Below, piece by piece: positions 1,441 to 38,128 of a DNA stretch of 64,000 nt (position 1 is its first letter; every line of letters starts with the position of its first letter). Source of the DNA: Leucoraja erinacea (lineage: Eukaryota); NCBI RefSeq assembly GCF_028641065.1, contig NW_026576728.1, positions 1 through 64,000 on the forward strand. Direction: 5' to 3'. The notes under the pieces are model-generated. The model searched no databases and was not told the DNA's origin. It saw only the letters and a program-made list of their open reading frames with translations. Made by a program: the position numbers and the translations under genes.

Positions 1441-1667
1441 TGTCTAACTCACATTTTTAATTCCTGCATTCCACAAGATCATATTTCTAATCACTGAACT
1501 GTTGGAACCGCCCAGGAAGTTTGCGACTATAATTGAAAGCGCATCTTCGGTTTGAGCTGAGAGCTGAGGAACAGAAGCTGAGAATTCAGACGAAAGACAA
1601 ATAGTTTCCACATTTTGATCTGCAGGTGTGTTAAACATCAGAGGAAGTTCAAATTCACCAAGTCAAC

Positions 1668-1682
1668 ATGGGCAATCAACAG
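1668..1682 (+). CDS. PLAAT gene A first coding exon (MGNQQ)
   Basis: ATGGGCAATCAACAG|gtaaat. Homologous mini-exons precede three other copies (20110, 27292, 34875). Confidence 0.75.
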
Positions 1683-4600
1683 GTAAATTTATTTGAATAC
1701 TTTTATTCTCAGTTCTGGTCACTGGGCAGGTGCTGGTTATCGATGCTCAGACATATTGTCTCCATCAGTCATAAAGTGTCTGAGCTCAACAACCTACACC
1801 CAGAGCCGTGGGAGACTGTGGTCTGCTGACAGTGGGCCGTACACGATGTGTGTTGGGGGGATTTTCCTGAACTTTCCCTCGTTCATATGTGGTGTTCAGA
1901 GCTTCCACCGATGCCATGGTGGAGCTGATGCCGGCTGTGATCAGGCACCGACACACAGCCCAAAGAAGGACGCGTTGTGGCATTTGGCAGGCCTCCTCAG
2001 TCATGGACGTAGGGTGATGTGGGGAGCGTGAAGTCAGAGGGTAAAGCGGGCTCTGGTTTTAACGCGCTGTTGTGTGGGGGGGGGGGGGGTGGGCATGCGG
2101 CGTCACACACACACTAACTACCCCCCTTGATATATTAATATTATTCATTTGGTCCTTTTACCCCATAACCGCCCTATCCACTGACACATAGCCCCCAACT
2201 CGCAGGCATGTCTTGAGGGGGAGGAGGAGTAGAGAGTGAGGGCAGAGATAGAGGGGGGGCAGAGACAGCGAGTGAGAGGGGCAGAGACAGAGAGGGGCAG
2301 AGAAAGAGAGAAAGGGGGGTGGAGGAGAGGAGGTGGAGGAGAGGGAGGATGGGTGGCGGAGAGGAGGGGGGGGAGAGAGTGAAGGGGAGGNNNNNNNNNN
2401 NNNNNNNNNNNNNNNNNNNNNNNNNNNNNNNNNNNNNNNNNNNNNNNNNNNNNNNNNNNNNNNNNNNNNNNNNNNNNNNNNNNNNNNNNNNNNNNNNNNN
2501 NNNNNNNNNNNNNNNNNNNNNNNNNNNNNNNNNNNNNNNNNNNNNNNNNNNNNNNNNNNNNNNNNNNNNNNNNNNNNNNNNNNNNNNNNNNNNNNNNNNN
2601 NNNNNNNNNNNNNNNNNNNNNNNNNNNNNNNNNNNNNNNNNNNNNNNNNNNNNNNNNNNNNNNNNNNNNNNNNNNNNNNNNNNNNNNNNNNNNNNNNNNN
2701 NNNNNNNNNNNNNNNNNNNNNNNNNNNNNNNNNNNNNNNNNNNNNNNNNNNNNNNNNNNNNNNNNNNNNNNNNNNNNNNNNNNNNNNNNNNNNNNNNNNN
2801 NNNNNNNNNNNNNNNNNNNNNNNNNNNNNNNNNNNNNNNNNNNNNNNNNNNNNNNNNNNNNNNNNNNNGAGGGGAGCTGGGCAGCAGCGTCCCCACCATG
2901 CGCCAGGCCTGAGCGAGGCCCGGGGCGATCTGAGGACTATCAAAAGCTTTTCCACCGTGCTTCCCCGCGCCCGTGCTGCGATAACAACCGCCGCAACCAT
3001 GTTGTAGAACTTCAAGGAGCCCATGGAGCACACAGCACGTGTATAGCGGCTTCAATCCAGAGCCCTGGGGTGGGGGGAGAGGGCGGCTGGGCCACGTAAA
3101 TCGCAGCTCGTGGAAAACAGTGCCCAGCAGGGTGCGCGGTGAAAACTCTGCGCAGCTTGCCGTGAGGAGCAGAAGCATTGTGACGTCATCCAGCTCGCTT
3201 CAGCTCGTTAGATTTTAAAATGATCTCAGATTGGTGAACAATTTTAGTAAAAAAACCCGGGAAATAATAAATCAAATTTTCAGATGAGGCGATTTTTGAG
3301 ATCATGAAGTAAATCCCTTCTGGAATATGTAATAATTTCACCATTAGCGCGTCGGGTTTTCGAGGAGATGTGAATCAAAGAAAAAGAGAGAAGGGGAGGG
3401 AGAGGGAGGGGGGGGGGGGGGAGGGAGAGAGAGAGAGGGGGAGAGAGAGGGAGAGAGGGGGGAGAGGGAGGGAGAGAGAGAGAGAGGGGTGGGGCGGCAG
3501 CTCGCGGGGGCCCGAGCTGAGGACGGTGAAAAGCAGCGGGGACCAGCCGATCGTGGCTTCCGTTAAGGGAAGCGCACCCACCAGCGAGACAGTGCCGGGC
3601 CGGGGGGGAGACAGACGATCGGGCCTCCCCGGAGAGGAAGTCGCCCCTGTAACGGGTAGAGAGGAGGTGAGAAGAGGAGGATCCAGGCGAGTGAGTGGGC
3701 TGCGAAATGCGGAGAGAGACAGAAGCGGCCTCTGACTCTCTGGAAACCCACAGCTGGAATGAGCGGGCGGGCGGGCGGGCGGGGGCTTCACGAGCTGCAC
3801 GGGCAGCACGGAGAAGTTTCAGCGCGTGAGGCGTCGCTGACCCCGAGATCTGTAGAACAAAGATCCTATAGCGGAGCTGAACAGAAGAATCTTTGTTCTG
3901 CAGAACTTTCTCTATCTTTCTGCGCCTTTTGAAGAACGGGGGGCGGGGGGTGGCTTGGCGAACATACCTCGTGGAAAACTGCGCATGCGCGTTGACAGCA
4001 ACTGCATTAATCCGCGGCAGCGGGGGGCGGGGCCAGGAGGCAGGTGTGCCTCGATTGGTGGGCATGTGGGCATTGTGACGTTAGCAGCAGGGAAGCGGCG
4101 ATTATTTTAAAAAATGAGTTTTGTTTATTCAAAATCTGGGGAAATAATTGACTGAATTTAGAGAGGAGTGGATTTTTGAAATCATCAGTTAAACCCCTAC
4201 TGAAATATGTAAACATCTCTGCGTTTTTGCGTCTGTTTTCGCGGAGTAACGAATCAAATGCAAAATAAATGACATACACNNNNNNNNNNNNNNNNNNNNN
4301 NNNNNNNNNNNNNNNNNNNNNNNNNNNNNNNNNNNNNNNNNNNNNNNNNNNNNNNNNNNNNNNNNNNNNNNNNNNNNNNNNNNNNNNNNNNNNNNNNNNN
4401 NNNNNNNNTAGCCCAACTGCAGCTCTTTGGGAACCTCCTTCTGCATATCAGCCTTCCGTTTCTGTTAAATATGAGAGATGTCAGTGCTTTCTCTCGACCT
4501 GCTCAACGGGAAATTCAACAGCTTTCTCAGAAACGCCAATTTATAATGCGCCATAACTTACCTGGGTTTCTTTCACTTTCATATTTATCTGGCTCCTTGA

Positions 4601-7600
4601 AAAGATCACCATCGCCTTCCTCAGGCACACCCTATGGGAGTAAGTTCCTCTTTACTCTACTCTCTGACTGTAAACACTTGAACTCCATTTTCCCTTTGTT
4701 TAACACTTTCCCTGTCGTTAACTTTGGATAAATATTAAATAAATGGAAACCTTCTGGTCTGAGCCATCGTTTGCATTGTTGTCAGGGGGTCTTCAGATGG
4801 TCAGAGAAGCATACATGGAAAAGTAACGGGCGATTTTTAAAAAAGAATGAGACAAAAAATCTAGTTTCAGCTTTCTCAATGAAACGCAGGAACAATTAGG
4901 CAGTTGGAAATGATTAACAACTGAATGTGGGAAAAGTTGGGGTTTGACATCCACAAACACTGAATTCACACCGGAGTTTATTTGATCGCTGCTTATTGTG
5001 TGGGAGAGAGTAGACACACTGCCCAGCACCACACGACTGAACCACAATGCTGCAAGGATTATAAGAACATCCATTTCTAACAAAGGTGAATGCACTAATT
5101 CATTGCCCAAAGCCAGGGTCAAACACCAATCTAAAATTAAATAAAACATATTTACAGTTTATTCCTCATCTTGCTTTTGTTGCCAGATAACCGGGCATCC
5201 TTGACTCTTTTAACTACATCTCAGTTTCTGTTTCCTAAGCCTTCTATTTTCTCATATTTAAGCCATCTCTCATCATCTGTTCCCTCATGAAAACTGTTGC
5301 AGGCACTCTGTGAATCCTGTGTGGATTCATCTGATCCCATTTTACCTTTCCCCATTTCACTACCCTCAGCCCCAAATCACCACAGATCAGTACGTTCTCT
5401 GGCAAGATGCTGAGATTTGTTGATCAGCAGACAGATGCAGTGATTCTTCAACCAGGACAAGTGAAGATCAACGGACAAAATTAAATAAATGTGAAATATT
5501 GACCTTTAGCTCAAGAGGGCTGGATCACAAATAGGAATTATCTTACAGTATTGGCAGATTTATCTAAATTAGTTCCACCTTCTTGGGTACACTGCTGCAC
5601 AGATTCACCAGGTAAATATTAAGATGAAGATTAATATCAGAACGAAGTATGAAGAGCTGGTCATAGACTGTCCCAAGCAGGGCTGGAAGGCAAGGTGTAT
5701 GCCCATAGCGGTTGGCTGCAGAGGTTTTGCAAGGCAATCGCTCTACAAAGCCTTGAGTGCACTGGGCATCAACGGAGTGGTGAGGAGAAAGGCCATCAAG
5801 AACACCACAGAGGCAACAGAGAAGGCCTCGAGATGGCTCTGGATCAGGAGAGAATGTCCATGGGGAGGAGCGAATGCCACCTTAACACAAGTCGTGGTCT
5901 GATCAACCACGGCTGGGTCGCCTGGGCGAAGGTGTCTGATGTTGAAAGACCCGAAGCACCCAATGACCCCAGGTTACATCACTGATGATAATAATAATAA
6001 TAAATTTAATTTATATAGCGCTTTTCTAAGACTCAAAGTCGCTTTACAATAGTAACAGACAATAGCAGACGGAGAAGCGGCGAACAAAGAGCGCCAGCGT
6101 CCTCTCCGTGCAGCACATAAAGAAAGAATACAGACATAACAGTAATAAAGAAATTTAAACATAGAAACATCCCCCCACAAAGTCCAGTCCCCATCCCATG
6201 TCCATGGGCCTATTGAGGCCTCCACAGTTGCCTCCACGGAGGCCCGATGTTCCAGGCCGTTCTCGCCGGGTGGTGTTGCTCCGGCGTCGGGAGAATCCTC
6301 TCAGCGGCATGGGAACCCTGGAACGGCCGCTTCCGTACTGGAGGCCGCGGCTTCCGAAGCCAACAAGGCCGCGCCGGATGGAGCTCCACAACTGGCGATC
6401 TCATCCAGAGATCCCAGGCTCCCGATGTAAAGTCAGCGCCGCCGCCCGCAGCTGGTCGCTCCTCAGACCCACAGATCCGCAATGCTTTTTTATCGCCGGT
6501 CCCAGCATACCGGAGTTCCAGTGCGGCGACCCGGGCAAGGCATTGCCCGCTCCGCGATAGCGCTCCAGTGCTGTGCCGCCGCTGAAGCCGTGTTACTGGG
6601 CGGTCCCCGACAGGAAACGCCGCTCCAGGCCCACTGGTAGGCCGCGAGGACGGGTCGAAACTGCAGCCCGGAGAAAAGCTGCCTCTCCGACCAGGTAGGG
6701 ACCCTGAAAGATATTTTCCCCCCTCCCCCCCCCCCCACATAAAAAAGTTTAGACCTCCAGAACAAAACACTTTAACTAACTAACTAACTAAAAAAAAAAA
6801 AAAGATGAAGATAAGGACAGCTACTGGCTGGGCAAGTACAAAGTGCACAAGTACAAAGTGCACAGATTTGATTTGCACTCCTGCAGGTACAAATGATTCA
6901 TGAAATATTATTTTGTTGTTGGGTTTGTTGTATTGAACCCTAACCATCAGAATCCAAATCACTACAAACGTCAGGTATTATCACAACGTTTAGCAGGTAC
7001 TATCGCAACATTTCAGAAACATTTGGACAAGTACGTGGATAGAACAGGTTTAGAGAGATATGGGCCAAAGGCAGGCAGGTGGGACATGTTAGTCAGTGTG
7101 GGCAGGTTGGGCCGAAGGGCCTGTTTTCACACTGTATGATTCGATGAAAATATAACCCAAATTGTTTAACATCTGGTGTTGGTTTATAATGTGATCTCTA
7201 TCTTATTTCCAGTTTAAACCAAAACCTGGAGATTTGATTGAAATACCTCGAAAGCGTTGGTATAAACACTGGGCCCTCTACATGGGAGATGGAGACGTCG
7301 TGCATTTAACTTCAGGTAAAAGCTGTTCACTTTTATTCTCCTATTTAACAAGTTTTGCATTGTAGACTTCTCTGCCCATGTGTAATTCAACCCATACCAG
7401 GGATACTATCAGATGATAAAAGACCATTTAATATCTATTCTAGATGGTGCAAGTGGAGATACGAGTACTCGATTCTCTAGGTCGGAAGGGATTGGTGTGA
7501 TTAAGAGGGAGCCTCTCGCTGACGTAGCTGGCAATAATTCCTGGAAAGTCAACAATAGATTCGACAAAATATGGAAACCATTACCCGTTGACAAGATAAT

Positions 7601-10600
7601 AAAAAAGGCTAATGAAATGATTGGATGCAGAGTGCGTTACAATGTACTAAGTGCAAACTGTGAACACTTTGTTAATTCACTTCGGTATGGTATAGATATA
7701 TCATTTCAGGTAAGTACAGTATATAACGTGGACATAAAGTCATTGTTCTTTGACGGGCCTGAGATTAATTTGGGGACTGGTCCTCCAGCGAATTATTGTC
7801 CCTTCAAATGCATGGGACATGATGGTACAAGAATGTTAAATGTATCCAACGCCTCTACGTTATACGCCTCTACTTCCTTAGAAGTTTGGCATGTCCCCTA
7901 CAACTCTCACCAACTTCTATAAATGCACCATAGAAAGTATTTTACCAGGATTCATCACATCTTGGTTTAGGAACAGCTCCATCCAAGACCGCAAGAAATT
8001 ACAGTAAATTGTGGATGCACCCCAGACCATCAGACAAACCAACCTCCCTTCTATTGACTCATACCTCATGCTGCCTCGGCAAGGCCACCAGCATAATCAC
8101 AGACGTGTCGCACCCTGGCAACTCCCTCTTCTCCCCTCTCCCATTAGGCAAGAGGTATAGAAGTGTGAAAATACACATCTCCAGATTCTGTCTGAAGAAG
8201 GGTTTTGACCCGAAACTTGCCTATTTCCTTCGCTCAATAGATGCTGCCTCACCCGCTGAGTTTCTCCAGCATTTTTATCAATCTACAGATTCAGGGCCAG
8301 TTTCTACCCAGTTTGAATACTTTTAATCTCAGCTTTGGTCACTGAGCAGATGCTGGTTATCGATGCTCATGTCTCCATCAGTCAGAAAATGTCTGAGCTC
8401 AACAACCTACACCCAGAGCCGTGGGAGACTGTGGTCTGCTGACAGTGGGCCGTACACGATGTGTGTTGGGGGGATTTTCCTGAACTTTCCCTCGTTCATA
8501 TGTGGTCTTCAGAGCTTCCACCGATGCCATGGTGGAGCTGATGCCGGCTGTGATCAGGCACCGACACACAGCCCAAAGAAGGACGCGTTGTGGCATTTGG
8601 CAGTCATCCTCAGTCCTGGACGTAGGGTGATGTGGGGAGCGTGAAGTCAGAGGGTAAAGCGGGCTCTGGTTTTAAAGAACATTTATAGCAGCAAAAGACA
8701 ATTTGGCCCAACTGCAGGATTTGATGCTCTTTGGGAACCTCCTTCTGCATATCAACCTTTTGTTTCCAGCAAATATGAGAGATGTCCTGAGAGTCTCTCT
8801 CGAGCTGCTTAATGGGAAATTCAAAAGCTTTCTCAGAAACGCCAATTTATAATGTGCTATAACTTATCTGGGTTGCTTTCACTTTCATATTTATCTGGCT
8901 CCTTGAAAAGATCTCCATCGCCTTCCTCAGGCACAGCCTATGGGAGTAAGTTCCTCTTTACTCTACTCTCTGACTCTAAACACTTGAACTCCATTTTCCC
9001 TTTGTTTCAAGTCAAGTCAAGCCAAGTCAAGTTTATTTGTCACATACACATACGAGATGTGCAGTGAAATGAAAGTGGCAATGCTCGCGGACTTTTGTGC
9101 AAAAGACAAACAACAAAACAACCAAACAAATTATAAACACAATCATAACACACATATTATTTTACATAATAAATAATGGAAGGAAAAACGTTCAGTATAG
9201 TTAGTCCCTGGTGAGATAGGCGTTTACAGTCTGAATTGCCTCTGGGAAGAAACTCCTTCTCAACCTCTCCGTTCTCACCGCATGGCAACGGAGGCGTTTG
9301 CCTGATCGTAGCAGCTGGAACAGTCCGTTGCAGGGGTCTCCCATGATTTTATTTGCTCTGGAGTTGCACCTCCTGATGTATAGTTCCTGCAGGGGGGCGA
9401 GTGAAGTTCCCATAGTGCGTTCGGCCGAACGCACTACTCTCTGCAGAGCCTTCTTGTCCTTGGCAGAGCAATTCCCAAACCAGATAGTAATATTTCCGGA
9501 CAAGATGCTTTCCACCGCGGCTGCGTAGAAGCACTGGAGGATCCTCGGAGACACTCTGAATTTCCTCAATTGCCTGAGGTGGTAAAGGCGCTGCCTTGCC
9601 TTACTCACGAGTGCTGAGGCGTGTGATGCCCATGTCATATCCTCGGAGATGTGGACTCCCAGATATTTAAAACAGTTCACCCTATCCACAGGATCCCCAT
9701 TTATCCTCAATGGAGTGTACGTCTTCGGATGTTGTGCCCTCCTAAAGTCCATGATCAGCTCCTTCGTTTTTTTGATGTTCAAGAGGAGGCTGTTATCCTG
9801 GCACCAGAGTGCTAGATCAGCCACCTCCTCCCGGTAGGCCTTCTCGTCGTTGTCTGAGATCAGGCCCACCACCACAGTGTCATCAGCAAACTTAATTATT
9901 GAGTTGGAGCTGAACCTAGCCACACAGTCATGTGTGTACAGGGAGTACAATAGCGGGCTGAGGACGCAACCCTGGGGCGATCCTGTGCTCAGGGTGAGGG
10001 ACTTCGATGTATTCCCTCCCATCTTGACTACCTGGGGTCTGGCGGTGAGAAAGTCCAGGACCCAGGCACACAGGGAGGTGTTGAGCCCCAATTCCATTAG
10101 CTTCCCAGCCAGTCTGGTGAGGACTATCGTGTTGAAGGCTGAACTGTAGTCTATGAACAGCATCCTCACGTAGCCTCCCTTCTGGCTGTCCAGATGGGAG
10201 AGAGCGGTGTGCAAGACCTGGGAGACCGCATCGTCCGTGGATCTGTTCGGACGGTATGCGAACTGCAACGGGTCCATGTTCCGAGGGAGGAAGGCGCAGA
10301 TGTGATTCTTCACCAGCCTCTCAAAGCATTTCATGACTACCGAGGTAAGGGCCACCAGACGGTAGTCATTCAGACAGGCTGGGGAGGCATTTTTTGGTAC
10401 CGGTACAATGATGGATTTTTTGAAGCAGACAGGGACCACGGACTTGTCCAGGGAGAGGTTGAATAATGTAGTGAGCACTGGAGCTAGCTGCGTAGTACAG
10501 GACTTGAGTACTCTTTAACACTTTCCCTGTCGTTAACTGGGTAAATATTAAATAAATGGAAACCTTCTGGTCTGAGCCATCGTTTGCATTGTTGTCAGGG

Positions 10601-13600
10601 GGTCTTCAGATGGTCAGAGAAGCAGACATTAAGAAGTAACGGGCGATTTAAAAAAAAGAATGAGACAAAAAATCTAGTTTCAGCTTTCTCAATGAAACGC
10701 AGGAACAATTAAGCGGTTGGAAATGATTAACAACTGAATATGGGAAAAGTTGGGGTTTGACATCCACAAACACTGAATTCACACCGGAGTTTATTTGATC
10801 GCTGCTTATTGTGTGGGAGAGAGTAGACACACTGCCCAGCACCACACGACTGAACCACAATGGTGCAAGGATTATAAGAATATCCATTTCTAACAAAGGT
10901 GTCTGCACTAATTCATTGCCCAAAGCCAGGATCAAACACAAATCTAAAATTAAATAAAACATATTTACAGTTTATTCCTCATCTTGCTTTTGTTGCCAGA
11001 TAACCGGGCATCCTTGACTCTTTTAACTCCATCTCAGTTTCTGTTTCCTAAGCCTTCTATTTTCTCTTATTTAAGCCATCTCTCATCATCTGTTCCTCAT
11101 GAAAACTGTTGCAGGCACTCTGTGAACCCTGTGTGGATTCATCTGATCCCATTTTACCTTTCCCCATTTCACTACCCTCAGCCCCAAATCACCACAGATC
11201 AGTACGTTCTCTGGCAAGATGCTGAGATTTGTTGATCAGCAGACAGATGCAGTGATTCTTCTACCAGGACAAGTGAAGATCAACGGACAAAATTAAATAA
11301 ATGTGAAATATTGACCTTTAGCTCAAGGGCTGGATCACAAATAGGAATTATCTTACAGTATTGGCAGATTTATCTAAATTAGTTCCACCTTCTTGGGTAC
11401 ACTGCTGCACAGATTCACCAGGTAAATATTAAGACGAAGATTAATATCAGGACGAAGTATGAAGAGCTGGTCATAGACTGTCCCAAGCAGGGCTGGAAGG
11501 CAAGGTGTATGCCCATCGTGGTTGGCTGCAGAGGTTTTGCAGGGCAATCGCTCTACAAAGCCTTGAGTGCACTGGGCATCAACGGAGTGGCGAGGGGAAA
11601 GGCCATCAAGAACATCACAGAGGCAGAAGAGAAGGCCTCGAGATGGCACTGGATCAGGAGAGAATGTCCATGGGGAGGAGCGAATGCCACCTTAACACAA
11701 GTCGTGGACTGATCAACCACGGCTGGGTCGCCTGGGTGAGGGTGTCTGATGTTGAAAGACCCAAAGCACCCAATGACCCTAGGTTACATCACTGATGATA
11801 ATAATAATAATAAATTTAATTTATATAGCGCTTTTCTAAGACTCAAAGTCGCTTTACAATAGTAACAGACAATAGCAGACGGAGAAGCGGCGAACAAAGA
11901 GTGCCAGCGTCCTCTCCGTGCAGCACATAAAGAAAGAATACAGACATAACAGTAATAAAGAAATTTAAACATAGAAACATCCCCCCACAAAGTCCAGTCC
12001 CCATCCCATGTCCATGGGCCTATTGAGGCCTCCACAGTTGCCTCCACGGAGGCCCGATGTTCCAGGCCGTTCTCGCCGGGTGGTGTTGCTCCGGCGTCGG
12101 GAGAATCCTCTCAGCGGCATGGGAACCCTGGAACGGCCGCTTCCGTACTGGAGGCCGCGGCTTCCGAAGCCAACAAGGCCGCGCCGGATGGATCTCCACA
12201 ACTGGCGATCTCATCCAGAGATCCCAGGCTCCCGATGTAAAGTCAGCGCCGCCGCCCGCAGCTGGTCGCTCCTCAGACCCACAGATCCGCAATGCTTTTT
12301 TATCGCCGGTCCCAGCATACCGGAGTTCCAGTGCGGCGACCCGGGCAAGGCATCGCCCGCTCCGCGATAGCGCTCCAGCGCTGTGCCGCCGCCGAAGCCG
12401 TGTTACTGGGCGGTCTCCGACAGGAAACGCCGCTCCAGGCCCGCTGTTAGGCCGCAAGGACGGGTCGAAACTGCAGCCCGGAGAAAAGCTGCCTCTCCGA
12501 CCAGGTAGGGACCCTGAAAGATAGTTTCCCCCTTCCCCCCCCCCCCACATAAAAAAGTTTAGACCTCCAGAACAAAACACTTTAACTAACTAAAAATAAA
12601 ATAAAAAGATGAAGATAAGGACAGCTGCTGGCTGGGCAGCCATGCACAGGACAGTGCCCCCAACCGTTATGAATCTTCTTCTGATGATGTGTTCAGGAGC
12701 ATCAATAGATGTATTTTTTAGCAAAAGGCTAAAAAATAATCACAAGTACAAAGTGCACAGATTTGATTTGCACTCCTGCAGGTACAAATGATTCATGAAA
12801 TATTATTATGTTGTTGGGTTTGTTGTATTGAACCCTAACCATCAGAATCCAAATCACTACAAACATCAGGTATTATCACAACGTTTAGCAGGTACTATCG
12901 CAACATTTCAGAAACATTTGGACAAGTACATGGATAGGACAGGTTTAGAGAGATATGGGCCAAAGGCAGGCAGGTGGGACATGTTAGTCAGTGTGGCAGG
13001 TTGGGCCGAAGGGCCTGTTTTCACACTGTATGATTCGATGAAAATATAACCCAAATTGTTTAACATCTGGTGTTGGTTTATAATGTGATCTCTATCTTAT
13101 TTCCAGTTTAAACCAAAACCTGGAGATTTGATTGAAATACCTCGAAAGGGTGGGTATAAACACTGGGCCCTCTACATGGGAGATGGAGACGTCGTGCATT
13201 TAACTTCAGGTAAAAGCTGTTCACTTTTATTCTCCTATTTAACATGTTTTGCATTGTAGACTTCTCTGCCCATGTGTAATTCAACCCATACCAGGGATAC
13301 TATCAGATGATAAAAGACCATTTAATATCTATTCTAGATGGTGCAAGTCGAGATACGAGTACTCGATTCTCTAGGTCGGAAGAGATTGGTGTGATTAAGA
13401 GGGAGCCTCTCGCTGACGTAGCTGGCAATGATTCCTGGGAAGTCAACAATGGATCAGATGGAATGTGGAAACCATTACCCGTTGACAAGATAATAAAAAA
13501 GGCTAAAGAAATGATTGGATGCAGAGTGCGTTACAATGTACTAAGTGCAAACTGTGAACACTTTGTTAATTCACTTCGGTATGATAAAGGTGTATCATTT

Positions 13601-14619
13601 CAGGTAAGTACAGTATATAACGTGGACATAAAGTCATTGTTCTTTGACGGGCCTGAGATTACTTTGGGGACTGGTCCTCCAGCGAATTATTGTCCCTCCA
13701 AATGCATGGGACATGATGGTACAAGAATGTTATATGTACGCCTCTACGCTATACGCCTCTACTTCCTTAGAAGTTTGGCATGTCCCCTACAACTCTCACC
13801 AACTTCTACAGATGCACCATAGAAAGTATTTTATCAGGATGCATCACATCTTGGTTTAGGAACAGCTCCATCCAAGACCGCAAGAAATTACAGTAAATTG
13901 TGGATGCACCCCAGACCATCAGACAAACCAACCTCCCTTCTATTGACTCATACCTCATGCTGCCTCGGCAAGGCCATCAGCATAATCACAGACTAGTCCA
14001 GTAGGATTCTGCTGGTTTTATCTTGTACTAAACGTTATTCCCTTATTGTGTATCTATACACTGTGAATGGCTCGATTGTAATCATGTATTGTCTTTCTGC
14101 TGACTGGATAGCACGCAACAAAAAGCTTTTCAATGTACCTCAGTACACGTGACAATAAACTAAACTAATGTTAACTGGCTGGCTTATGTATATTTGGCAG
14201 TGAGATCCAACTGGGTTGAGGATTGGGGTAATGTTTAGACTAAAATAGTAATGCTTTGAAGGGAAGGGGTGGCAAAGGCAAAAGTGGCAGTCACCAGAGG
14301 TCATGTCATCGATGACATCACTTAGAATCACTTGGAACATTTCTACTGTAGAATCCATTGCTATACTTGAAAATATCTTTTTTTTTCACAGGTTATTGCA
14401 GGAATCGTCATAATTGGTGTAACGGCCATCTTCAGTCCTGTTGCTGCTGTTGCTGCACTTGGTGCCGCCTGCCTTTTCAAGGTTTGTTCTTGTGTGAGCT
14501 CATCAGTGAAAAGCGCATCAGTGAAAAGCACATCAGTGAAAAGCACATCAGTGAAAAGCACATCAGTGAAAAGCGCATCAGTGAAAAGCACATCAGTGAA
14601 AAGCACAAAACAAACCTAG
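1668..14619 (+). CDS. PLAAT/HRASLS-family gene A with two tandem catalytic modules (exons 1668-1682, 7213-7315, 7444-7709, 13107-13209, 13338-13603, 14392-14619; ~326 aa if all spliced)
   Basis: All junctions are GT-AG and in phase. The motifs PGDLIEI, YKHWALY, VVHL and NCEHFV occur twice, followed by a hydrophobic C-terminal exon. Intron 1 contains N gaps. Confidence 0.8.
2062..4279. repeat. GC-rich repeat insertion(s) with assembly gaps, specific to gene A intron 1 (class uncertain)
   Basis: Absent from the paralogous introns (compare 8670 and 28080). Two related blocks at ~3175-3380 and ~4070-4279. GA-rich tracts. Confidence 0.45.
4508..4580. promoter_or_regulatory. Putative immune enhancer: NF-kB-like GGGAAATTCA, GAS TTCTCAGAA, IRF-E CTTTCACTTTC
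   Basis: Three motifs within 73 bp, repeated at 8814-8886, 28221-28293 and 35797-35869. Motif match only. Confidence 0.5.
5223..5236 (+). promoter_or_regulatory. ISRE consensus AGTTTCTGTTTCCT in PLAAT intron 1
   Basis: Matches AGTTTCNNTTTCY. Also at 11036, 21568 and 28936; mutated at 36861. Confidence 0.55.
5625..5985 (+). mobile_element. 3' fragment of a restriction-like-endonuclease non-LTR retrotransposon (HERO-like); duplicate at ~11435-11795
   Basis: KYEELV..C...[15 protein letters not shown]...AEKASRWLW motif. Confidence 0.7.
5986..6830 (-). repeat. GC-rich interspersed repeat with an L2-like (TTA)n tail; duplicate at ~11796-12660, related element at ~14670-15370
   Basis: Minus strand ends AAAGCGCTATATAAATT...(TTA)n. 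Absent from the B and C copies. Confidence 0.55.
7213..7315 (+). CDS. PLAAT module A1 exon 2 (H-box)
   Basis: ttccag|[34 protein letters not shown]|gtaaaa. Confidence 0.92.
7444..7709 (+). CDS. PLAAT module A1 exon 3 (NC motif)
   Basis: ttctag|DGASG...[24 protein letters not shown]|gtaagt; 266 nt. Confidence 0.93.
8189..8285 (+). mobile_element. Short Penelope-derived element with a 7-bp TSD (CAGATTC)
   Basis: CAGATTC at 8182-8188 and 8286-8292; empty site near 39053. Confidence 0.7.
9008..10513 (-). mobile_element. 5'-truncated Rex1/Babar-like LINE with an open RT ORF (9201-10478)
   Basis: [39 protein letters not shown]; AATAAA(CTTGA)n tail. Absent from the paralogous intron near 4700. 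Confidence 0.92.
13107..13209 (+). CDS. PLAAT module A2 exon 2 (H-box)
   Basis: [34 protein letters not shown] with canonical splice sites. Confidence 0.92.
13338..13603 (+). CDS. PLAAT module A2 exon 3 (NC motif)
   Basis: DGASR...[18 protein letters not shown]|gtaagt; 266 nt. Confidence 0.93.
14392..14619 (+). CDS. PLAAT gene A terminal exon: hydrophobic segment plus (SVKS[T/A])7 tail
   Basis: ttttcacag|[37 protein letters not shown](SVKS[T/A])x7KQT*; ATTAAA at 14636. Confidence 0.82.
   Translation, partial: VIAGIVIIGVTAIFSPVAAVAALGAACLFKVCSCVSSSVKSASVKSTSVKSTSVKSTSVKSASVKSTSVKSTKQT
14503..14607 (+). repeat. Coding 15-bp minisatellite x7 (TCAGTGAAAAGC[A/G]CA)
   Basis: Direct inspection. 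Confidence 0.95.
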
Positions 14620-19555: not shown

Positions 19556-20109
19556 CTGCTATCTACCCGCATTGCTGATGACTCTTGGATCACAGGGAGG
19601 GTGGCGGTTGCACCTCTAGAAAAATCTGTAACCCAATTTTCCATAAAACAGTGACCGCTGTACCCTTCTAGTTTACCATTTTCCATAAAGTCCATATGAG
19701 TGATTTTTTGTTGTGTATCTCACCTTGTTAATTGCTGAATAGATATTTACAAGGCAAAGATAGATAGATTCTTGATTAGTACGGGTGTCAGGGGTAATGG
19801 GGAGAAGGCAGGAGAATGGGGTTGAGGGGGAAATATAGATCAGCTGTGATTCAATGGCAGAGTAGACTTGATTAGGCGATTGGCCTATTTCTGCTCTTAT
19901 CATATAAACTTATGAATCGTGTGAAAGCAAAATTCTTATCACTGTTGGACCCGCCCAGGTTATTTTCAACTAGAGTCGAAAGCAAGTCTTGGGTTCGAAT
20001 TGAGAGCTGACAAACAGCTGAGAACTTTCAGACGAAAGACAAATTGTATCTACATTCTGATATGCAGGTGTGGTAAAAATCAGAGGAAGATCAAACTCAC
20101 CAAATGAAC

Positions 20110-23100
20110 ATGAACCATCGAAAGGTAATTTTTAATCTTAGGTTTGGGTCACTGGGCAGGTGCTGGTTATCGATGCTCAGACATATTGTCTCCAACAGTC
20201 AGAAAATGTCTGAAGCTCAACAACCTACACCCAGAGCCGTGGGAGACTGTAGTCTGCTGACAGTGGGCCGTACTCTATGTGTGTGGGGGGGGTCGACAGA
20301 TCAATTTTCCTTCTTGGGATTAACAAAGTTCCACCGTATCATTTCATCCTGGCTTTGGACAATCAATTAGTGTAGCCTCTTTTGTTCAAAATGAATGTTC
20401 TGATCATAATCCTTGTACCACCGTGGTTCGGTGGTGGTGATGGGGTATGTCGACCCTCTCCTGCACAAACATGAGCAGTGATCAAATAAACACGGAAGTG
20501 AATTCAGTGTTTGCGGATATCAAAGCCCAATTTGTTTGTGCATTTGTTTATAAAGGGTGGGGAACAAAAACTGGACAAGGGAGGGGGGAGTCGAAGATAA
20601 GGATATGGGCGAGATTGTTAATCGGTAGCCCTGTGTGGGTCGATTTGTGCATCTGGCGGCATGTGCCTGAGTGACCACCTATTTGTGCGCTAAGCCTGCA
20701 CCGAAGATTCATCCCCCATTACCCGTGGAACCAGACCTCACACTGTTAAGCCCAAGTTCCACAGCCTTCCATCCTCAGTAGGGTGGCCAATGTTCTCACT
20801 GCCAAATAAGGGACAAAAGATCAAAATACGGGACAAATTCCCCATGGCAATTCGTTGACCGACTCGGCCGTGGCTGGGTGAATGATGAGTTGGCCCGGGT
20901 GCTGGACTGCACACAAAGCCCAGCCGGCGGGCCAGCTGAGGAGTTTAGGTCCGTGTGCTGCGCGATGTCGCGCGCAAAGTCCGATGACCGGCCATGAGAA
21001 GGAGGGGTGGTGATGGAGTCGGCGGTAAGTGAAGGTCCGAAGATCGGACAACTGGCCGGGCTGCGTACCAACGGGGCAAAGGTCGAGGAGCTGCTGCTGC
21101 ACTATGTTGGGATGGGTGCGGCGTACCCAGATGCAGCGCTTCGACCCGACAGTCCCCTCGACCCGAGTAGTAGCAGTCAAATAGGGGACAAACCAATTTA
21201 GCCCAAAATACAGGCAAATACGGGACAGTTAGCCACCCTAATCCTCAGGGACTACCAAATACGACCTAGACTCTGATTTGAAAGAAAATTTAGAGCAGCA
21301 AAAACCTCCTGCATATCAGCCTTCGTTTCCAGTAAATATGAGAGAGGTCCTGAGCGCTCTCTCTCGAGCTGCTTAACGGGACCGAACCACGGTTGTGCAA
21401 GGATTATAAGAACATCCATTTCTAACAAAAGTGGCTGCACTAATTCATTGCCCAAAGCCAGGGTCAAACACCAATCCAAAATTAAATAAAACATATTTGC
21501 AGTTTATTCCTCACCTTGCTTTTGTTGCCAGATAACCGGGCATCCTTGACTCTTTTAGCTCCATCTCAGTTTCTGTTTCCTAAGCCTTCTATTTTCTCTT
21601 ATTTAAGCCATCTCTCATCATCTGTTCCCTCATGAAAACTGTTGCAGGCACTCTGTGAATCCTGTGCGGCTTCATCTGATCCCATTTTACCTTTCCCCAT
21701 TTCACTACCCTCAGCCCCAAATCACCACAGATCAGTACGTTCTCTGGCAAGATGCTGAGATTTGATGGTCAGGAGACAGATGCAGTGATTCTTCTACCAG
21801 GACAAGTGAAGATCAACGGATAAAATAAAAAATATGTGAAATATTGACCTTTAGCTCAAGAGGGCTGGATCACAAGAAGAAATTATCTTACAGTATTTAT
21901 CTAAATTAATGCCACCTTGGGCATCACCTTCTGCACAGATTCACCCTGTAAATATTAAGGCTAAAAACGATCATGAGTACAAAGTGTATAGATTTGATTT
22001 GCATTCCTGCAGGTACAAAAGATTAATGAATTATTTTGTTGTTGGGTTTGTTGTATTGAACCCTAACCATCAGAATCCAAATCACTACAAACATCAGGTA
22101 TTATCACAACGTTTAGCGGGTACTATCGCAACATTTAAGAAACATTTAGACAAATACGTGGATAGGACACGTTTAGAGAGATATGGGCCAAAGGCAGGCA
22201 GGTGGGACGTTAGTCAGTGTGGGCAGGTTGAGCCGAAGGGCCTGTTTCCATGCTGTATGATTCGATGAAAATATCACTACACTTATTAACATCTGATGTT
22301 GATTTCTAAAGTGATACTGATCTTATTTCCAGTCTGCCATTAATGCAAAACGTGGAGATTTGATTGAAATATGTCGAAAGGGTGGGTATAAACACTGGGC
22401 CATCTACATTGGACTTGGTGACGTCGTACATTTAACTTCAGGTAAAAGCTGTTCACTTTTTTTCTCCTATTTAACATGTTTTGCATTGAAGACTTCTTTG
22501 CCCAAGTGTCATTCAAGCCGTACCAGAGATACTATCAGACCTGATAAAGACCCTGATAAAGACCCAAAAATTGGAGGAACAGCACCTCATATTCCGTTTG
22601 GGGAGTCTGCACCCCGGGGGCATGAACATCGAATTCTCCCAATTTTGTTAGTCCTTGCTGTCTCCTCCCCTTCCTCAGCCCCCCTGCTGTCTCCTCCCAT
22701 CCCCCAGCCTTCGGGCTACTCCTCCTTTTCCCTTTCTTGTCCCCACCCACCCCCGACCCCGATCAGTCTGAAGAAGGGTTTCGGCCCGAAACGTTGCCTA
22801 TTTCCTTCGCTCCATAGATGCACCCGCTGAGTTTCTCCAGCTTTTTTGTGTAACCAAAGACCCTTTCATATCTATTCTAGATGGAGCAAGTGGAAATGTG
22901 AGTTTTCGCTTCTCTAGCTCGGCAGATGTTGCTGTGATTAAGAGGGAGCCTCTCACTGAGGTAGCTGGAAGTGATGCCTGCTATGTCAACAACAGTTCAG
23001 ACACAAGGTTTGAAGCATTACCCGTGGACATGATAATAAACAAGGCTAAACAAAGCATTGGACGGAAAGTGCATTACAATGTTCTAAAACAAAACTGTGA

Positions 23101-24380
23101 ACATTTTGTAAACACACTTCGATATGGTGAAAAGATTTCCTACCAGGTAAGTGCAGAAACATAAGACCATAACATATAGTAGCAGAATTAGGCCATTCGA
23201 CCCATCAAGTCTATACTGTCATTCAATGATCTATTTTTCCCTCTCAAACCCATTCTCCTGCCTTCTCCCCATAACATCTGATGCTCAACCTACTCCAAGA
23301 ACCTATCAATCTCTGCCTTAAAAATACCCAATGACTTGACTTTCAACGTCGCCTGTGGCAATGAATTCCACAGATTCCCCACCCATTGGATCAAGAAATT
23401 TCTCCTCATCTCCATTTAGATTTTCTGAGGCCGTAATGTTTGGTCCAAGACTCTCCAACTACTGAAAACATACTTTCCATATCTACTTTATCCAGGCCTT
23501 TCATTATCTGGTAGGTTTCAATGACCCCCCCCCCCCCCTCCTCATCCATCTAAACTCCAGCGAGTGCAGGCTGAGAGGTCAAAGCCATCAATTCCCTCAT
23601 CCAGATAATAACCTGGACAGAAAACCATTGAGGGGCCTGAGATGTCTTGGGCCCTCCAAATGTATGGGACATGGTGGTTCAAAGGCGTTACATGTTCAGC
23701 GGCTGGTTTGTGTACATTTGGCAGTGAAGGAGACAACTCACTACACTGGGTGATGACTGGGGTCAGGTTTAGAGCAGAATTGTATTCCAAACCAAGTCAC
23801 ACATGGGAGAGCAGGAAATAGAGGGATATGGATCAAGAACAGAGAGCTGAGATCAGTTTAACTATGCATCATGTTCGGCACAAGCAATGTGGGTCGCAGG
23901 TCCCATTTCTGTGCTGTACTCTTCTGTGTTCTATCTTCTTGAGGGAAGGGGAGGCAAAGGTACCGTGGGCAGGTCACCAGATGTCATGTCATCGATGACA
24001 TGTTTGGATGTTTAAGAAAGAACTGCAGATGCTGGAAAAATCAAAGGTAGACAAAAATACTGGAGAAACTCAGCGGGTGAGGCAGCATCTATGGAGCGAA
24101 GAAATAGGTGATGTTTCGGGTCGAGACCGCTCTTCAGACTGTCACCTATTCCTTCACTCCACAGATGCTGCCTCATCCGCTCAGTATCTCCAGCATATTT
24201 GTTAGGATCACACAATCACTTGGAACATTTTTGCTGTGGAATCCATGACTAAACATATTTTTTTCCCCACAGGCTGAGGATGCAAGCCTTGCTATTGGTG
24301 TAGGGTCTATCGTCACTGCAGCTGTAATGGGTGTCGGTGCCATTCTTGCCCTTCTATTGGGGGGGCATCATAAACAATGA
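20110..24380 (+). CDS. PLAAT-family gene B1, intact, ~165 aa (exons 20110-20124, 22333-22441, 22881-23146, 24273-24380)
   Basis: MNHRK|[36 protein letters not shown]|DG...NCEHFVNTLRYGEKISYQ|AEDASLAIGVGSIVTAAVMGVGAILALLLGGHHKQ*. GT-AG junctions, in phase. An alternative in-frame ATG lies at 20104. Confidence 0.88.
20779..21240. mobile_element. Non-autonomous hAT-like DNA transposon
   Basis: TIR TAGGGTGGC/GCCACCCTA; 8-bp TSD ATCCTCAG; GGGACA subterminal repeats. Confidence 0.88.
22333..22441 (+). CDS. PLAAT B1 exon 2
   Basis: H-box YKHWAIY...VVHL; ag/gt boundaries. Confidence 0.9.
22566..22855 (+). mobile_element. Penelope-like element 3' end (GIY-YIG C-terminus plus hammerhead-type motif) in B1 intron 2
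   Basis: [24 protein letters not shown], then CTGAAGAAGGGTTTCGGCCCGAAACGT; flanking AAAGACCC duplication; absent from B2. Confidence 0.8.
22881..23146 (+). CDS. PLAAT B1 exon 3
   Basis: KQNCEHFVNTLRYG; 266 nt like its paralogs. Confidence 0.92.
24273..24380 (+). CDS. PLAAT B1 terminal transmembrane exon
   Basis: Polypyrimidine acceptor, ~24-aa hydrophobic stretch, TGA; ATTAAA at 24415. Confidence 0.82.
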   Translation, partial: AEDASLAIGVGSIVTAAVMGVGAILALLLGGHHKQ

Positions 24381-26160: not shown

Positions 26161-27291
26161 GGACAGCTGACCTACTGAGTTACTCCAGCACTAATTGTCT
26201 TTTTTTGTAAACCAACATTAAAAGTTCCTTGTTTCTCCAATAACACAATGAGCCTCATTGAATTCTGCATGCCACAGACACTGGCTTACAATGGCTGGTC
26301 TGGAGAACTTGGAAGGTTCTGGCACCATGCTGGGCCCTGATCTGACGAGAGGTTAGATGAGCTTGCAAGCAGGTTACACATATAATCATAAACCTGTCTT
26401 TCTTCCCGACTCTACAAACAACAGTCAGCTATGTTTAAAACTAGTCATCATCCCTAGTACTGAAAATAGGCTTTAGTCATCTGTCTCAGTAGTCCCTTGG
26501 GAGAGCAGGTTAACCCAATGGTTTTGCAGTTGTCTGTTGAGCTAGGTATTGAAAGTGAGCCTGTTTGTGTGGCAAAGGGAATGTTATCAGACAACTCCAT
26601 TTTAGCCGAGAAGCATGTTTCTCCTCCCTCACCTCCCATTCAGGAGCTGCAGCAGTCGTTCCAGGTGGACAGAGGTTCACATGCACCTCATTTACAGTCT
26701 AGGTTCCTTCTGCTGCTGGACATGGGGGGCAGGGTGTGGTGGAGACGCCCCTCAAAATAAGGGAAGGGATTCCACGGCAGTGGGCCACATGAGTGGCAAG
26801 GGTGTGGGGTAAAATTGTGATTTGGGGAAACTGTATATGTAGTGTAGCCACCGAGAATGTCGGATGGAGTTTTGTATGGATCATGTATTGTATATATTTA
26901 TTTCTCGAATAAAGTATATCTTGAAATAAAAAATCTAACCTCATCTACTGCATCTGGTGAGACCTTTCTACTTCATGAGAACAAAGTTTAGACATGGCGA
27001 CCATTTCACCAAATATTTACGCTTGATCTGCCAACTGAATCATCCGTAAGAGTGAGTCTTTATCACGCAGTGCACATTTTTTAATCGCTGAATTCCAGAA
27101 GACCAAATTTCTAATCACTGAACTGTTGGAACCGCCCAGGAAGTTTGCGACTAGAATTGAAAGCACGTCTTCAGTTTGAGCTGAGAGCTGAGGAACAGAA
27201 GCTGAGAATTCAGACGAAAGACAAATAGTTTCTACATTTTGATCTGCAGGTGTGTTAAACATCAGAGGAAGTTCAAATTCACCAAGTCAAC

Positions 27292-30200
27292 ATGAGCCGT
27301 CGAAAGGTAAATTTGTTTGAATACTTTTAATCTCAACTCTGGTTGTTAGAAATTTTCCAACAAAGACTATTACAAAAACAGAGGTAGAAACTGAACGAAC
27401 TTTATTGAGAGAGAGCCACACAGAGCCCAAGTGTCTATGGGAGTCTTCTCTGAGCTAATGCTGAAACCATCTCTTTTATACATTGATTTAGACAAAAAAG
27501 CATCCAGACAAATGGTAATGAACAAGGACACTCAGGATTCAAAGGAAATAACATTTAGCTGTGGAAAGTTACACCGGAGCAAGATTAGCCGTTCTGCAAG
27601 TTCTGTGATAGACTCTTAATCTCATGACCGAGACCTGTCAATTACTCGTGCCCTAGGCAGTTTTGGTAAACAATCTTGTGCAGACACAGATAGAATACAT
27701 AAGGAAATAAGTTACATTAATTTTTCCATCACTGGTCACTGAGCAGATGATTGTTATCGATGCTCAAACATATTGTCTCCATCAGTCAGAAAATGTCTGA
27801 GATCAACAACCTACACCCAGAGCCGTGGGAGACTGCGGGCTGCTGACAGTGGGCCGTACTCGATGTGTGTTGGGGGGGATTTTCCTGAACTTTCCCTTGT
27901 TCATATGTGGTCTTCAGAGGACATGGCTGCTGATGCCATGGTGGAGCTGATGCCGGCTGTGATCAGGCACCGACAAACACCGACAACGAAGGACGCGTTG
28001 TGGCATTTGGCAGTCATCCTCAGTCCTGGACGTAGGGTGATGTGGGGAGCGTGAAGTCAGAGGGTAAAGCGGGCTCTGGTTTTAAAGAACATTTATAGCA
28101 GCAAAAGACAATTTCGCCCAACTGCAGGATGTTATGCTCTTTGGGAACCTCCTTCTGCATATCAGCCTTAATTTCTGTTAAATATGAGAGATGTCAGCGC
28201 TTTCTCTCGAGCTACTTAATGGGAAATTCAAAAGCTTTCTCAGAAACGCCAATTTATAATGCGCCATAACTTATCTGGGTTGCTTTCACTTTCATATTTA
28301 TCTGGCTCCTTGAAAAGATCTCCATCGCCTTCCTCAGGCACAGCCTATGAGAGTAAGTTCCTCTTTACTCTACTCTCTGACTGTAAACACTTGAACTCCA
28401 TTTTCCCTTTGTTTAACACTTTCCCTGTCGTTAACTTTGGATAAATATTTAATAAATGGAAACCTTCTGGTCTGAGCCATCGTTTGCATTGTTGTCAGGG
28501 GGTCTTCAGATGGTCAGAGAAGCAGACATGGAAAAGTAACGGGCGATTTAAAAAAAAGAATGAGACAAAAAATCTAGTTTCAGCTTTCTCAATGAAACGC
28601 AGGAACAATTAAGCGGTTGGAAATGATTAACAACTGAATGTGGGAAAAGTTGGGGTTTGACATCCACAAACACTGAATTCACACCGGAGTTTATTTGATC
28701 GCTGCTTATTGTGTGGGAGAGAGTAGACACACTGCCCAGCACCACACGACTGAACCACAATGGTGCAAGGATTATAAGAACATCCATTTCTAACAAAGGT
28801 GTCTGCACTAATTCATTGCCCAAAGCCAGGATCAAACACCAATCCAAAATTAAATAAAACATATTTGCAGTTTATTCCTCATCTTGCTTTTGTTGCCAGA
28901 TAACCGGGCATCCTTGACTCTTTTAACTCCATCTCAGTTTCTGTTTCCTAAGCCTTCTATTTTCTCTTATTTAAGCCATCTCTCATCATCTGTTCCCTCA
29001 TGAAAACTGTTGCAGGCACTCTGTGAATCCTGTGCGGCTTCATCTGATCCCATTTTACCTTTCCCCATTTCACTACCCTCAGCCCCAAATCACCACAGAT
29101 CAGTACGTTCTCTGGCCAGATGCTGAGATTTGTTGATCAGCAGACAGATGCAGTGATTTTTCTACCAGGACAAGTGAAGATCAACGGACAAAATAAAAAA
29201 TATAAGTGAAATATTGACATTTAGCTCAAGAGGGCTGGATCACAAGAAGAAATTATCTTACAGTATTTATCTAAATTACTGCCACCTTGGGCATCACCTT
29301 CTGCACAGATTCACCCTGTAAATATTAAGGCTAAAAACGATCATGAGTACAAAGTGTATAGATTTGATTTGCATTCCTGCAGGTACAAAAGGTTAATGAA
29401 TTATTATGTTGTTGGGTTTGTTGTATTGAACCCTAACCATCAGAATCCAAATCACTACAAACATCAGGTATTATCACGTTTAGCGGGTACTATCGCAACA
29501 TTTAAGAAACATTTAGACAAATACGTGGATAGGACACGTTTAGAGAGATATGGGCCAAAGGCAGGCAGGTGGGACGTTAGTCAGTGTGGGCAGGTTGGGC
29601 CGAAGGGCCTGTATCCATGCTGTATGATTCGATGAAAATATCACTACATTTATTAACATCTGATGTTGATTTCTAAAGTGATACTGATCTTATTTCCAGT
29701 CTGGTTTCAAAGCAAAACGTGGAGATTTGATTGAAATACCTCGAACACTTGGGTATAAACACTGGGCCATCTACATTGGACATGGAGACGTCGTACATTT
29801 AACTTCAGGTAAAAGCTGTTCAATTTTTTTCTCCTATTTAACATGTTTTGCATTGAAGACTTCTCTGCCCAAGTGTCATTCAAGCCGTACCAGAGATACT
29901 ATCAGACCTGATAAAGACCCTTTCATATCTATTCTAGATGGAGCAAGTGGAGATGTGAGTTTTCGCTTCTCTAGCTCGGCAGAAGTTGCTGTGATTAAGA
30001 GGGAGCCTCTCACTGAGGTAACTGCAGGTGATCCCTGCTATGTCAACAACTGTTCAGACACAAGGTTTGAAGCAATACCCGTGGCCAAGATAATAAACAA
30101 GGCTAAAAAAAGCATTGGACGGAAAGTGCATTACAATGTTCTAAAACAAAACTGTGAACATTTTGTAAACAAACTTCGATATGGTGAAAAGATTTCCTAC

Positions 30201-38000: not shown

Positions 38001-38128
38001 GTAAAAGCTGTTCACTTTTTTTCTCGTATTTAACATGTTTTGCATTGTAGACTTCTCTGTCCACATGCAATTCAACCCACACCAGGGATACTATCAGATG
38101 ATAAAAGACCATTTAATATCTATTCTAG

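Follow-up and report, generated by a model that had tools for sequence, protein, structure and literature searches.

Human PLAAT4 (RARRES3, TIG3) is described as a target of IRF1 and interferon, with GAS, ISRE and IRF-E elements in its promoter (PMC10102619), and IRF1 is reported to drive basal RARRES3 expression without STAT1 (PMC7819612). CIITA promoter IV is described as IFN-gamma-inducible, with a GAS, an IRF1 site and a first exon of its own (PMC6540827), and mouse Aim2 as having an inflammation-induced first exon, driven by NF-kB and IRF, that standard annotation had missed (PMC8260223). Among fish PLAAT genes, zebrafish rarres3 was reported to be induced by the virus SVCV (PMC11326706), and zebrafish plaat1 to be barely induced and to dampen IFN (PMC9510373); the main text of a zebrafish ISG preprint, whose gene list is in the supplements, does not name rarres3/hrasls (10.1101/693333). 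Cartilaginous fishes are reported to have all three interferon types (PMC6640115). A literature search covering few subscription journals returned no study of interferon-response elements or PLAAT arrays in cartilaginous fishes, and no stimulated elasmobranch study.

The window analysed here (64,000 nucleotides of Leucoraja erinacea) contains a duplicated gene array of five PLAAT (LRAT-domain) modules, M1 to M5 (Table 1), coding for enzymes of membrane lipids. Judged from their sequences, the modules belong to the PLAAT (HRASLS) family. Indeed, (i) the LRAT domain PF04970 is matched with E=6e-32, (ii) NCEHFV, HWA and VVH are present in all five modules, (iii) the PDB matches are PLAAT2/3/4, and (iv) exon 4 is hydrophobic on inspection by eye in four of the five (M2-M5), M1 having no exon 4 of its own. 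Human PLAAT4 is likewise an LRAT-domain enzyme with a Cys-His-His triad and a C-terminal hydrophobic segment (PMC10102619). The third catalytic residue is His in all modules and Asn in PLAAT1 (PMC10102619); PLAAT1 orthology was rejected on this residue and on the position of the skate genes outside the PLAAT1-labelled clade, which also separates them from zebrafish plaat1. In the tree, from which one of the 54 chosen rows, without the anchor motif, was left out, the skate genes fall in an elasmobranch clade (99/94; deep branches 40/65) and are relatives of human PLAAT4, orthology not being implied. PACS1 is the neighbour gene of the array; in human, the PLAAT2-5 cluster on 11q has PACS1 nearby. 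Allelic false duplication is unlikely for M1/M2/M5 versus M3/M4 (dS 0.24-0.28), and the presence of both subfamilies (M1/M2/M5-type and M3/M4-type) in Amblyraja and Rhinoraja in the tree also argues against it; the array further contains pairs that are 97% identical. The NCBI model P0084 starts MGNQQ, as does exon A of M1.

Table 1. Coordinates of the PLAAT modules and of the cassette features in the window
Feature	Position	Strand	Remarks
M1 exon A region	1503..1682	+	GC box and TATA-like word; codes MGNQQ at 1668-1682; donor 1683
Perfect kB site GGGATTTTCC	1858..1867; copies 8471, 27876, 35448	+	~345 bp 5' of cassette, except M1
kB-like site GGGAAATTCA	4508..4517 (M1); copies 8814, 28221, 35797	+	one mismatch from consensus
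GAS palindrome TTTCTCAGAAA	4523..4533; copies 8830, 28237, 35813	.	110 bp upstream of exon-B ATG
IRF-E	4569..4580	-	GAAAGTGAAAGA in M1; GAAAGTGAAAGC in M2/M4/M5
TATA-like TATTTAT	4582..4588	+	52 bp 5' of ATG; in 4/4 cassette copies; putative function
Candidate alternative first exon B	4612..4639	+	ends ATG GGA (4634-4639); 5' end predicted from TATA spacing
Splice donor GTAAGT, consensus	4640..4645; copies 8946, 28353, 35929	+	
ISRE AGTTTCTGTTTCC	5223..5235; copies 11036, 21568, 28936	+	584 bp 3' of exon-B donor
M1 exon 2 (7213-7315) and exon 3 (7444-7709)	7213..7709	+	LRAT domain with His, His, NCEHFV Cys
Module M2	8312..14619	+	without exon A; cassette 8814-8886; exon-B ATG 8940; ISRE 11036
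M2 exons	13107-13209, 13338-13603, 14392-14619	+	LINE insertion in M2 at 9008-10513
Module M3	19920..24380	+	exon A coding 20110-20124; ISRE 21568 retained; core identical to P0003
Module M4	27171..31433	+	cassette 28221-28293; exon-B ATG AGA 28347-28352; ISRE 28936; core identical to P0001
M4 exon A, transcribed	27171 or earlier to 27306	+	RNA coverage
M4 exons	29700-29808, 29938-30203, 31326-31433	+	
Module M5	34710..39957	+	ATG of exon A lost; cassette (35797-35869) intact, as is the exon-B ATG 35923

An earlier note on this DNA had placed a kB-like/GAS/IRF-E cluster at 4508, 8814, 28221 and 35797, and an ISRE at 5223, 11036, 21568 and 28936. A motif search of the window recovered all sites of the cluster, and the ISRE at all four positions. 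The GAS core TTCTCAGAA stands at 4524, 8830, 28237 and 35813 and is actually an 11-bp TTTC-TCA-GAAA, GAAAGTGAAA marks the IRF-E on the minus strand at 4571, 8877, 28284 and 35860, and a copy of the ISRE in M5 (36861-36873), adjoined by a MITE-like insert, is degenerate by one substitution. The NF-kB consensus is GGGRNWYYCC. The sequence proposed as an NF-kB site at 4508 is present, and its single mismatch makes it a kind common by chance: 3.5 such kB sites are expected per intron in shuffles, and it therefore weighs little. The perfect kB site GGGATTTTCC, which the earlier note overlooked, is itself weak and arises in 13% of shuffles. The GAS matches TTCN2-4GAA and the IRF site matches AANNGAAA, as these are given in PMC7819612. 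The 2.4-kb intron 1 of M4 was submitted to dinucleotide shuffling, with motif definitions fixed only after the motifs had been noticed. Of 1000 shuffles, 2 had kB (one mismatch), GAS and IRF within 100 bp of one another, and the pair of GAS and IRF, kB not being required, turned up in 26 under a lenient definition and in 3 under a stricter one; the 13-bp ISRE appeared in 1.1% and the 12-bp IRF-E in 1.4% of shuffles. The 24 kb of the window outside the PLAAT modules hold no motif cluster, and shuffles of these 24 kb gave one in 8 of 200 under the lenient definition. The clustering is directly seen to be non-random, and ISRE, GAS and IRF-E near a start site fit their consensus beyond chance, as in interferon-stimulated genes.

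The cassette is followed by a TATTTAT, an ATG and a consensus donor, and is therefore read as an internal promoter with an alternative first exon; its anatomy looks like that of a promoter before such an exon. Anatomy and reading frame are directly legible: the joint of exon B to exon 2 is in phase 0 with an open frame in four of four copies, the cassette-to-ATG spacing is identical in all four, with no intervening upstream ATG, ATG and donor stand 63-69 bp 3' of the IRF-E, and in M4 and M5 intron 1 has no other GTRAG on its plus strand than this donor. An in-frame ATG with GTAAGT within 100 bp occurred in 0.21% of 9200 shuffled windows (2.1% with the looser GTRAG). The exon-B ATG has C at -3, which is a weak start context. 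With a donor and an in-frame start 3' of the response elements, the cassette agrees with an inducible alternative promoter of the CIITA promoter IV type, where a GAS is followed by an IRF1 site and the separate first exon lies beside constitutive promoters; unlike in CIITA, the skate GAS has no adjoining E-box and exon B is a predicted exon of two codons, and no homology is implied. Exons of the mouse Aim2 type came from reads, whereas the skate exon B is predicted from sequence and carries a start codon. Losses among the modules are complementary: M3 has only exon A, its cassette and exon B having gone through a deletion of ~525 bp at about 21382, M2 has no exon A, and exon A of M5 has no in-frame ATG. 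Catshark RefSeq isoforms have three codons before exon 2 (MGE in four proteins, MKE in one) and a stingray record has a lone M; since they are seen as proteins and not as DNA, these short starts only hint at an exon like exon B, and those of catshark could instead be a shortened exon A. The TATTTAT, the ATG and the in-frame donor (ATG GGA followed by GTAAGT, 4634-4645) had gone unremarked in the earlier note.

We give about even weight for and against the reading that we prefer, in which the cassette is an internal promoter of the IFN-gamma/IRF1 type with a two-codon alternative first exon in intron 1. At rest, the transcript would start at the upstream exon A, whose five codons read MxxRK or MGNQQ; exon A spliced to exon 2 is the part of this resting scheme that RNA directly documents. 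In response to infection or to IFN-gamma, the GAS would be occupied by STAT1 dimers and the IRF-E by IRF1, perhaps with assistance from NF-kB, and transcription would start ~30 bp 3' of TATTTAT. The resulting exon B of ~28 nt, ending in ATG GGA, would be spliced in frame to exon 2 and yield a near-identical enzyme (MG or MR replacing MxxRK) at a higher level, while the downstream ISRE would add type I/III IFN input. Factor binding, induction, exon-B transcription and an anti-pathogen role are predicted by this scheme. An interferon-responsive array is plausible from the motifs and by analogy with known systems, and the exon-B anatomy suggests an infection-switched PLAAT version, plausible though unproven.

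Four of 24 listed RNA runs of unspecified treatment were aligned at 85% likeness (two contig sets, one at depth 2-4, one without expression). Three of the four showed exon A joined to exon 2 (depth 37, depth 22 and one read), so that the "intron 1" location given by the earlier note is right for the expressed transcript; run X10 had no reads on PLAAT exons. Over exon B of M4 (28199-28416) depth was 0 in all four runs, and no transcript joining exon B, which is short, to exon 2 was among the matches listed. The five little-skate NCBI proteins examined do not use exon B, and no exon-B isoform was found in skates among 20 NCBI proteins looked up; the skate models examined begin either within exon A or at a point 5' of exon 2. 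These observations favour the view of the earlier note, to us rather doubtful, that the cassette is an intronic interferon-responsive enhancer boosting the exon-A promoter, which lies 0.9 kb upstream in M4 and M5 and at least 2.8 kb in M1, ATG-GTAAGT being incidental. The motif shuffle statistics hold equally for an enhancer, and M3 retained its ISRE after losing the cassette; however, an enhancer leaves unexplained both the in-frame ATG with a consensus donor at a fixed short distance past the IRF-E (0.2-2% by chance) and the intact cassettes of M2, which has no exon A of its own, and of M5, where exon A is without ATG.

Between modules with no more than 78% likeness in exon 3, the cassette is 93-96% alike, and was therefore spread by recent conversion or recombination. 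The copies are one event copied four times and their recurrence is not independent; the earlier note had cautioned as much, correctly and with understatement, because the segment was homogenised between old paralogues. Such a single event is also what would be expected if the motifs arose by chance in one ancestral intron and were multiplied by duplication and gene conversion without regulatory function. This unlikely origin gains from the post hoc choice of motifs, from the lenient triple clusters in shuffled non-PLAAT DNA, from the lost cassette of M3 and the mutated ISRE of M5, and from the barely induced zebrafish plaat1 (PMC9510373). Among the paralogues, the whole 82-bp cassette is no more conserved than its flanks (8/82 versus ~10% variable), and the four motifs of the earlier note by themselves give 2/46 variable columns against 146/1421 in the flanks (p=0.14); columns of motifs, ATG and donor together vary less (2/71 versus 146/1421, p=0.021, paralogues only). 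Against a chance origin, several independent low-probability features share 2.4 kb in promoter order, and the PLAAT family includes known IRF1/IFN targets. Very improbable, finally, is a functional element under another STAT/IRF pathway (STAT5 or STAT3, or basal IRF1/IRF2), tissue-specific rather than infection-induced. The STAT5-type consensus is TTCYNRGAA, which TTCTCAGAA also matches, and IRF1 is reported to sustain basal RARRES3 without STAT1 (PMC7819612); however, GAS, IRF-E and ISRE together are typical of IFN responses, and no basal use of exon B was seen in the four runs.

The human PLAAT4 promoter resembles the skate cassette in its IRF-E, ISRE and GAS (PMC10102619), whereas the skate elements sit behind a constitutive upstream exon and in five tandem modules. 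Tentatively, and with less confidence than the internal promoter itself, a two-promoter design may be proposed for elasmobranch PLAAT genes: a constitutive exon A alongside a hidden exon B of 2-3 codons (MG/MR in skate, perhaps MGE/MKE in catshark) that is inducible through IFN-gamma and IRF1. In the skate array, conversion would hold the regulatory block uniform as the catalytic exon diversifies, and the duplicates would be dividing the promoters, with A alone in M3 and B alone in M2 and M5. If so, the shark and ray PLAAT array would be a counterpart of primate PLAAT4 that had expanded independently, the GAS-IRF promoter grammar would be common to jawed vertebrates, and a third vertebrate lineage would have taken PLAAT enzymes into service as interferon effectors. 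Both the types of motif and inducible alternative promoters in general are already well known, which limits the surprise. The GAS/IRF-E/ISRE module and the predicted junction would offer a cheap, specific reporter or RT-PCR readout for skate IFN-gamma signalling.

Furthermore, the selection signal invoked by the earlier note is suggestive in that dN/dS is above 1 in close pairs (3.3 and 2.1), and falls short of significance (p=0.18 each, 0.064 pooled). The NCBI model for M5 has an odd upstream start, and that for M2 fuses M1 and M2. A structured RNA was set aside, with 0 Rfam matches in 1400-40500. Depth is 0 over 27763-28634, and a common, high-copy transcribed repeat is therefore an unlikely origin of the cassette, a rare LTR being conceivable; reads at 85% likeness pile up more than 1000-fold on a SINE-like piece at ~29480-29635.

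Five plus-strand tandem modules (M1-M5) of a gene with an LRAT domain (PF04970, E=6e-32) lie at 1400-40000, each encoding the catalytic motifs HWA, VVH and NCEHFV. The exon 2-4 core of M3 is 100% identical to the NCBI protein P0003 and that of M4 to P0001 (both "PLAAT3-like", Leucoraja erinacea), P0082 is the counterpart of M5 among NCBI proteins, and P0084 is an NCBI model spanning M1 and M2, with 7213-14619 as one protein with two LRAT domains. In a tree of 53 proteins, whose deep branches lack resolution, the elasmobranch sequences form a single clade (99/94) outside the PLAAT1-labelled clade, and the skate sequences a single sub-clade (96/95). A PACS1-like gene with minus-strand exons (51708-60654) lies downstream of the array; database records suggest that PLAAT-PACS1 linkage is common to Amblyraja, Pristis, Heterodontus, Chiloscyllium punctatum and four squamates, and in human, PACS1 lies near PLAAT2-5 on 11q.

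The interferon-type motif cassette of M1, M2, M4 and M5 (kB-like site, GAS and IRF-E) is a candidate inducible alternative promoter. TATTTAT directly follows the IRF-E, and 52 bp further on stands ATG GGA (ATG AGA in M4) and then the donor GTAAGT; this spacing is identical, and free of any other ATG, in all four copies. The donor of this putative first exon (exon B) would join the exon 2 acceptor in phase 0 with an open frame. The first introns of M4 and M5 contain no other plus-strand GTRAG (M1 and M2, whose introns carry insertions, have eight each). Among 9200 shuffled windows of 100 bp, 0.21% held an in-frame ATG with GTAAGT, and 2.1% did when the donor was relaxed to GTRAG. In exon B and the upstream five-codon exon A the modules complement one another: M3 has only exon A, M2 lacks an exon A of its own, and that of M5 has no ATG and an in-frame stop upstream. 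RefSeq catshark isoforms carry MGE (four proteins) or MKE (one) immediately ahead of exon 2 and a Potamotrygon record starts with a lone M, while in the majority of the other elasmobranch records five codons precede exon 2, as with exon A; seen at the protein level, such short leads could be exon B or something else. Exon A of M1 (1668-1682) starts MGNQQ and exon B would start MG; a glycine at position 2 could permit N-myristoylation. We propose, with moderate confidence, that STAT1 and then IRF1 would act on an internal promoter in the cassette upon IFN-gamma, that a two-codon exon B would be spliced to exon 2, and that the downstream ISRE would provide type I/III interferon input. The cassette would operate in like manner to CIITA promoter IV, and exon B would resemble unannotated inflammatory first exons, as these are described in the parts consulted of PMC6540827 and PMC8260223, respectively.

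Every motif of the earlier note was found at its place, and the motif observation is confirmed and beyond chance. When M4 intron 1 was dinucleotide-shuffled 1000 times, the three motifs clustered within 100 bp in 2 shuffles under lenient definitions and in 0 under stricter ones, all definitions having been picked once the motifs were already known. GAS and IRF alone did so in 26 (lenient) or 3 (stricter) of 1000, and the 13-bp ISRE and the 12-bp IRF-E appeared in 1.1% and 1.4% of shuffles, respectively. No cluster was present in the 24 kb of the window outside the array, of which 8 of 200 shuffles gave a lenient cluster. The kB site at 4508 departs from the consensus by one mismatch, and an intron is expected to hold 3.5 sites of this kind. 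That the motifs are a product of chance is improbable. The GAS and IRF cores match those in the part of PMC7819612 consulted.

The RNA result stands mostly against the exon B reading, in a weak test. Four of 24 listed runs were mapped to 27000-30260 at 85% likeness, and the exon A-exon 2 joint (GT..AG, 2393 nt) was supported by contigs of depth 37 in X1 and 22 in X2 and by a single read in X14. Since contigs reach back to 27171-27192 in exon A, this is probably a first exon, and the earlier placement of the cassette in intron 1 is right for the resting transcript, with the joint in three of four runs. Depth was 0 across 28199-28416, the exon B region of M4, in all four runs, and exon B was not seen among the matches listed; X1 and X2 are contig sets of guessed RNA status from which rare forms are dropped, X14 has a depth of only 2-4, X10 had no coverage of the PLAAT exons, exon B would measure just about 28 nt and run treatments are not on record. 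Its absence from all five little-skate NCBI proteins examined, even where a start codon is needed, also counts against exon B. A role of the cassette as an enhancer of exon A is possible, if rather unlikely, and as the input of another STAT/IRF pathway very improbable. Promoter and enhancer taken together, an interferon-type function of some kind is thus probable.

Over the cassette and exon B segment, M1, M2, M4 and M5 share 93-96% identity in each of their six pairings. Exon 3 is less alike, with 78% identity of M4 to M1 and M2 and 82% to M5, and dS between the two module subfamilies is 0.24-0.28. The cassette and exon B segment has therefore been made uniform by conversion or recombination, unless M4 is a chimera; the earlier caveat that recurrence is not independent holds, and the recurrence counts as one event. 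In M3, the cassette was lost through a deletion whose break runs through the kB site. Among paralogues, 2 of 46 columns vary in the four named motifs, against 146 of 1421 in the flanks (p=0.14), or 2 of 71 once the perfect kB site, TATTTAT, ATG and donor are added (p=0.021); 8 of 82 vary in the whole 82-bp cassette. This column variation lends weak support to constraint on the motifs.

Differences are mostly amino-acid-changing between M1 and M2 (16.5 non-synonymous, 1.5 synonymous; omega 3.3) and between M3 and M4 (20 and 3; omega 2.1). The selection signal mentioned earlier is only suggestive, as dN/dS did not reach significance (p=0.18 each, 0.064 pooled). The non-synonymous rate also exceeds intron divergence (about 2%) in these pairs (p=0.0014 and 1e-5), an excess of which intron conversion could be the source. 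Such divergence fits a defence gene without proving one, and the reading of the array as interferon-stimulated genes is plausible. In the parts consulted of the respective sources, human PLAAT4 carries GAS, ISRE and IRF-E elements, is targeted by IRF1 and IFN and limits both hepatitis A virus and Toxoplasma (PMC10102619), zebrafish rarres3 is listed as SVCV-induced or SVCV-studied (PMC11326706, PMC8138431) and zebrafish plaat1 shows barely any induction (PMC9510373); those of PMC10760033 and PMC13005343, on squamate plaat1 loss, are silent on any skate array.

Insertions and repeats in the modules
Feature	Position	Strand	Remarks
GC-rich, CpG-island-like insertion, M1 only	2062-4409		CpG o/e 0.88; starts after TTAA; two gaps
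LINE insertion	9008-10513	minus	437-aa reverse-transcriptase frame (PF00078); between M2 exon B donor and ISRE
MITE-like insert, terminal inverted repeats, M5 intron 1	36179-36509		
MITE-like insert, terminal inverted repeats, M5 intron 1	36876-37070		
Inverted copy of intron 1 segment 4934-5123, inside M3	20342-20533		77% identical

The GC-rich insertion of M1 sets the perfect kB site apart from the cassette and contains a ~300-bp unit repeated twice (about 3040-3350 and 3960-4270, by eye). The second MITE-like insert directly follows the mutated M5 ISRE, and the inverted copy in M3 predates the module duplications.

In M4, intron 2 (29809-29937; 129 nt) is in frame and stop-free and is spliced out in the X1 and X2 contigs; its retention would add 43 residues to the catalytic domain. 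A patch of M1/M2/M3 type (29746-29749) on an otherwise M4-like transcript, in the X2 contig and two of four X14 reads, suggests either that alleles are mosaic or that exon 2 underwent gene conversion. M1 lacks the transmembrane exon 4, and two-domain models also occur in Amblyraja, Hemitrygon and Heterodontus; if the two-domain M1-M2 protein is real, the M2 cassette would yield a one-domain isoform from within intron 3. The C-terminal tail of M2 (14497-14616) is a tandem repeat of SVKSA/T (15-bp unit), and a similar repeat varies in copy number among Amblyraja isoforms.
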